A DNA stretch of 64,000 bases from Escherichia coli O127:H6 str. E2348/69 (lineage in GTDB: Bacteria; Pseudomonadota; Gammaproteobacteria; Enterobacterales; Enterobacteriaceae), in NCBI RefSeq assembly GCF_000026545.1, contig NC_011601.1, one strand, 5' to 3'. Made by a program: the position numbers and the translations under genes. Of the stretch, positions 63,500 through 63,522 are shown in pieces; the stretch's first letter is position 1, and each line of letters begins with the position of its first letter. Under the pieces are notes generated by a model. It did not search any database, was not told the DNA's origin, and saw only the letters and a list, made by a program, of their open reading frames with translations.

Positions 63500-63522
63500 A
63501 ATAAGGATGTTGTAACTAAAGT
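63500..63522. promoter_or_regulatory. TerB-like replication terminator site (Tus-binding) overlapping the tus promoter
   Basis: AATAAGGATGTTGTAACTAAAGT contains the Ter core GTTGTAAC and differs at one position from the TerB sequence as I remember it, 11 bp upstream of the tus start. Confidence 0.6.

Follow-up and report, generated by a model that had tools for sequence, protein, structure and literature searches.

TerB, its neighbours and the tus promoter

The window, the whole 64,000-nucleotide stretch of Escherichia coli O127:H6 str. E2348/69 DNA that was analysed, ends inside the tus gene. On the plus strand, rstA (61373–62152) lies upstream of rstB (62156–63457), and tus starts at 63533. 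The window holds the first 156 codons of tus (63533–64000, plus strand), where the ORF leaves it. TerB, the 23-bp Tus-binding replication terminator adjoining tus, is located between rstB and tus at 63500–63522 on the plus strand, and the rstB stop codon is 42 nt before it. The site reads AATAAGGATGTTGTAACTAAAGT and has one mismatch to the K-12 TerB. The rstB-tus segment was 100% identical to E2348/69 (NZ_CP059840.2, reverse strand), in which the genes are annotated as rstB and tus. The Tus reading frame is intact across the 156 codons. Its product matched Pfam PF05472 (Ter protein) with an E value of 6.4e-61, and the PDB Tus chains 1ECR, 2EWJ, 2I05 and 2I06 with an E value of 2.5e-99.

Published descriptions use the G-C(6) pair, whose C6 flips into a pocket of Tus, to define a Ter site (PMC8707476, PMC8347550). 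Toft 2021 gives C6 and the core A8-A19 as criteria, and Goodall et al. 2021 (PMC8347550) gives C6 and fewer than 5 mismatches. In the window TerB, the G of position 6 that provides C6 is at 63505, and the 12-bp core A8-A19 occupies 63507–63518 (ATGTTGTAACTA). The cognate Tus is encoded in the same genome by the gene starting at 63533. The earlier note had seen a Ter core in this site, and GTTGTAAC is indeed present at 63509–63516 on the plus strand. When the window was searched with the K-12 TerB at up to 3 mismatches, the only match was 63500–63522, with 0 expected from 100 shuffles. The 16-nt consensus AGNATGTTGTAACTAA is perfect at TerB; the window has two perfect matches to it and 0 are expected by chance.

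Direct alignment with MG1655 TerB (AATAAGTATGTTGTAACTAAAGT) gave a single difference, T7 to G7, at base 63506 (plus strand), which is G here and T in K-12. The earlier note had reported exactly one such G for T against TerB. MG1655 has T, so the TerB sequence used in the note was correct. The site is in the rstB-tus spacer. There are 10 nt between the end of TerB and the tus ATG at 63533, and the A of ATG is the 11th base after TerB, in agreement with the earlier note and with the 11 bp given in the literature for the distance from TerB to the tus start.

No convincing intrinsic terminator was found from the rstB stop to TerB (63458–63499), so read-through from rstAB would meet the non-permissive face of Tus-TerB. 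The sole terminator-like match near the end of rstB is weak and lies inside the gene at 63390–63402.

According to the literature, TerB is within the tus promoter and Tus represses its own gene. An extended -10-like element of a putative tus promoter, TGCTATAAA, is located at 63492–63500 on the plus strand and overlaps Ter position 1 with its final base. Comparison of 41 tus-upstream regions across species showed that 37 have a TGnTAnnn[A/T] motif whose end falls between Ter positions -1 and +2. A generic sigma-70 scan of 63380–63600 returned no promoter, as it requires a -35 element, which is missing here, and T as the sixth base of the hexamer, which here is A; conservation of the motif across species was therefore used instead. 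A literature search for tus promoter or transcription-start data returned nothing relevant. From the spacing of the motif, with a start 6–8 nt after the hexamer, we infer that tus transcription begins at about 63506–63508, within the Tus footprint; repression by occlusion would then be explained. Base 63506 would be at about -1/+1 of the putative promoter, and this placement is the only route that we see by which G7 might make a functional difference. The conserved -10-like motif abutting TerB appears to fit Tus autoregulation. Taken with synteny, the Tus ORF and the published accounts of the site, it supports the earlier identification of TerB as the operator for this autoregulation.

TerC, dif and the geometry of the fork trap

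TerB had been described in the earlier note as the only Ter-like site in the window. This was incorrect, since TerC (GCATAGGATGTTGTAACTAATAT) lies at 10388–10410 on the plus strand with a perfect match to AGNATGTTGTAACTAA. It is in the yneE-uxaB spacer, as in MG1655, and equals MG1655 TerC (ATATAGGATGTTGTAACTAATAT) except at outer positions 1-2. The core GTTGTAAC occurs three times in the window, compared with 1.5 expected. Its copy at 39090–39097 on the minus strand, in the context ACAGATGTTGTAACCATT, was considered as a third Ter and rejected as a chance match that lacks G6, T18 and A20. Perfect inverted repeats flank TerC: AACAGGTGC...GCACCTGTT at 10350–10375 and AACCCGGT-CGAA-ACCGGGTT at 10423–10442. 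The latter, with a T-rich run after it on the minus strand, resembles a terminator for uxaB.

[quoted passage not shown] Of its 28 bases, 27 agree with MG1655 dif; the exception is the outermost XerD-arm base, which is G and not T. As in MG1655, dif is about 80 bp beyond hipA. The GC skew is positive to about 6 kb and then negative, and its sign changes at dif. TerB and TerC are on the same strand, with dif and the skew switch on the position-1 side of both. In this arrangement, the C6 (non-permissive) ends of both sites face forks that come from dif, as expected of a fork trap, and TerC is the innermost barrier for a fork from the left. The right half of the inner fork trap is thus complete in the window, with dif, TerC, TerB and tus, which corrects the picture of a single terminator.

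TerC and TerB are 53 kb apart; in MG1655 the distance is about 75 kb. The lsr operon for AI-2 uptake, which is between hipBA and tam in MG1655, is absent at about 7900–9300 of the window, and dif is within 3.8 kb of TerC because lsr is missing between hipB and tam.

Homology to MG1655 ends exactly at the outer edge of dif, and window positions 1–6575 are strain-specific (2460143–2466718 of the E2348/69 record). Integrase pseudogene fragments abut dif where the strain-specific DNA starts. This DNA encodes a reverse-transcriptase-domain protein, an AAA ATPase and two "ABC-three component system" proteins. It resembles a defence-type island that was inserted at dif or beside it. A search for a second dif-like site that would bound such an insertion found none at up to 3 mismatches.

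Distribution of the position 7 alleles

Alleles were counted in 5426 complete E. coli genomes by exact-word megablast searches with 30-mers. These were chosen so that the variable bases lie within each possible 28-nt word, and therefore the four allele classes are mutually exclusive. The window allele, with G7, was found in 798 genomes, such as 536, NC101 and CE10. The same 23-mer with G7 and a downstream flank of GA in place of GG was found in 567 genomes, for example ST131, and the exact 23-mer of the window is thus present in 1365 genomes. A2T together with G7 was found in 1260 genomes (O157:H7 and HS among them). The K-12 allele, with T7, was found in 2344 genomes, including DH5alpha and J53. 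In total, at least 2625 of 5426 genomes (48%) have G7 and 2344 (43%) have T7, while 457 (8.4%) fall outside the four classes. Reading 7 more sampled E. coli strains directly, in an alignment with the window and MG1655, confirmed the alleles.

G7 spans several phylogroups without a visible compensatory change in the core. It is a major allele of the species and not a private mutation. The earlier note had treated the base as a substitution and implied that it was rare. Relative to K-12 the term is accurate; for the species it is not, because G7 is at least as frequent as T7, and the implied rarity does not agree with the counts. The K-12 sequence should not be taken as "the" E. coli TerB.

For outgroups, one genome per species was scanned for a Ter core followed by 8–20 nt and then by codons for M-x-R-Y-D/E. 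The scan returned 40 tus-proximal Ter sites. G6 was present in 40 of 40, and T7 in 37, including those of Citrobacter, Salmonella, Cedecea, Erwinia and E. albertii. The other 3 sites have G7 and are all from Escherichia: the E. coli-labelled representative, E. whittamii and Escherichia sp. E1V33. Because T7 is found in 37 of 40 species, T7 is taken as ancestral in the family, with G7 arising within Escherichia. We also considered G7 as the ancestral base and the T7 of K-12 as derived, given that 7 of 9 sampled E. coli have G7; this is contradicted at the family level by the same 37 sites. That T7 is ancestral across the Enterobacteriaceae and G7 restricted to Escherichia lineages is a minor point. 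Of the 40 species, 39 have a spacer of 7–11 nt from Ter to ATG, and Entomohabitans has one of 16 nt. One identical tus-proximal site, AAAAAGTATGTTGTAACTAAAAT, recurs in many Citrobacter species.

Function of the G7 allele and comparison with known Ter sites

Goodall et al. 2021 (PMC8347550) describe position 7 as variable, without base-specific contacts to Tus, and as varying among phylogroups. [quoted passage not shown] Its supplementary ter alignments cover 17 strains, E2348/69 among them. MG1655 TerC naturally has G7, and TerG has G7 as printed in that supplement. Both are reported among the six high-affinity sites bound in ChIP-seq, with a K-12 coverage of 269x for TerC (G7) and 410x for TerG (G7), compared with 430x for TerB (T7); as an analogy for neutrality these sites are imperfect, for both differ from TerB at further outer positions. 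Our literature search found no text on base 7 contacts in the locked complex and no experiment on a G7 TerB allele. We consider it well supported, though at second hand from these published accounts and by analogy with TerC and TerG, that T7G is neutral. The conservation of T7 at the tus-proximal Ter outside Escherichia (37/40) could reflect a mild preference for T, for example in promoter function.

Very probably, the site is the functional TerB of E2348/69 (phylogroup B2) and serves two roles, with T7G a common allele that leaves its functions essentially unchanged. The present analysis provided the sequence, synteny and orientation of the site, its allele frequencies and the conservation of the motif; that Tus binds, locks and represses here, and that position 7 is neutral, comes from the literature or from inference. 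Tus bound to TerB would form a polar barrier to replication forks, as a backup to TerC. A fork from the dif/TerC side, on the left of the window, would unwind the DNA up to G-C(6), C6 would flip into the Tus pocket, and the lock would form. Forks from the tus side would pass through TerB. The same bound Tus would cover the start region of the abutting extended -10 promoter, and tus would be repressed. T7G changes the one position of the site at which there is no sequence requirement, and both functions should be essentially unchanged.

G7 might instead be functionally different and shift the set-point of tus expression, or the kinetics of the lock, in the lineages that carry it. Base 63506 is predicted at about -1 of the tus start and lies beside the locking C6, and T7 has been kept in 37 of 40 tus-proximal sites outside E. 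coli, whereas other Ter sites are free to vary at position 7. The reported K-12 ChIP coverage is also lower for TerC (G7, 269x) than for TerB (T7, 430x), two sites that differ elsewhere too. However, TerG has G7 and a reported coverage (410x) similar to that of TerB, the published view is that position 7 barely affects the stability of the complex, and at least 48% of complete E. coli genomes, in several phylogroups, have G7 with an apparently unchanged core. We regard a functional difference as unlikely, and it is also unlikely that the split between T7 and G7 is a functional polymorphism rather than a neutral one. If it were, G7 lineages (B2, E, F and others) would have different set-points of Tus autoregulation from T7 lineages (mostly K-12-like A/B1), and the occupancy of the fork trap may differ between them.

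It is very improbable that the substitution damages TerB and that the site is a weakened or decaying terminator. The difference from the reference does adjoin the critical G-C(6) pair, but G6 and the whole 12-bp core are intact, the strongest natural sites have G7 as well, large lineages are fixed for the allele, and the Tus frame is undamaged over the 156 codons in the window. As for a sequencing error or a chance Ter-like match, nothing favours it beyond the single-base difference itself. The 23-mer recurs unchanged in 1365 independent complete genomes, no Ter match is expected by chance, and the site is at the syntenic position of TerB. This last explanation has a negligible probability and is already refuted.

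The site is a genuine, ordinary TerB with a common and already noted allele at a non-discriminating position. Published work already covers TerB, its location in the tus promoter and the variation at position 7. The finding itself matters little, given that TerB has been described and that Goodall et al. 2021 included E2348/69 in their genome comparison.

Compared with K-12 MG1655 TerB, the window TerB is identical at 22 of 23 bases and has the same locus, the same orientation and the same 10-nt spacer to the tus ATG. The gene order rstA-rstB-TerB-tus is shared, and the flanking -10-like motif and the leader are identical. Over the 45 nt that precede the -10-like motif, there are five more substitutions. 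Compared with E. coli TerC, the window TerB shares AGGATGTTGTAACTAA, including G7, and the same orientation. In contrast to TerB, TerC lies in the yneE-uxaB spacer without linkage to a promoter, and its outer positions 1-4 and 21-22 differ; the literature reports that TerC has high affinity, forms the lock and is the most used arrest site. The tus-proximal Ter sites of Salmonella, Citrobacter, Cedecea and Erwinia have G6 and the ATGTTGTAACTAA core, as in the window. In other Enterobacterales, this Ter (the "vicinal Ter" of Toft 2021) is 7–16 nt upstream of the tus ATG and usually has a TGnTAnnn[A/T] motif before it. Unlike the window TerB with its G7, it has T7 in 37 of 40 species.
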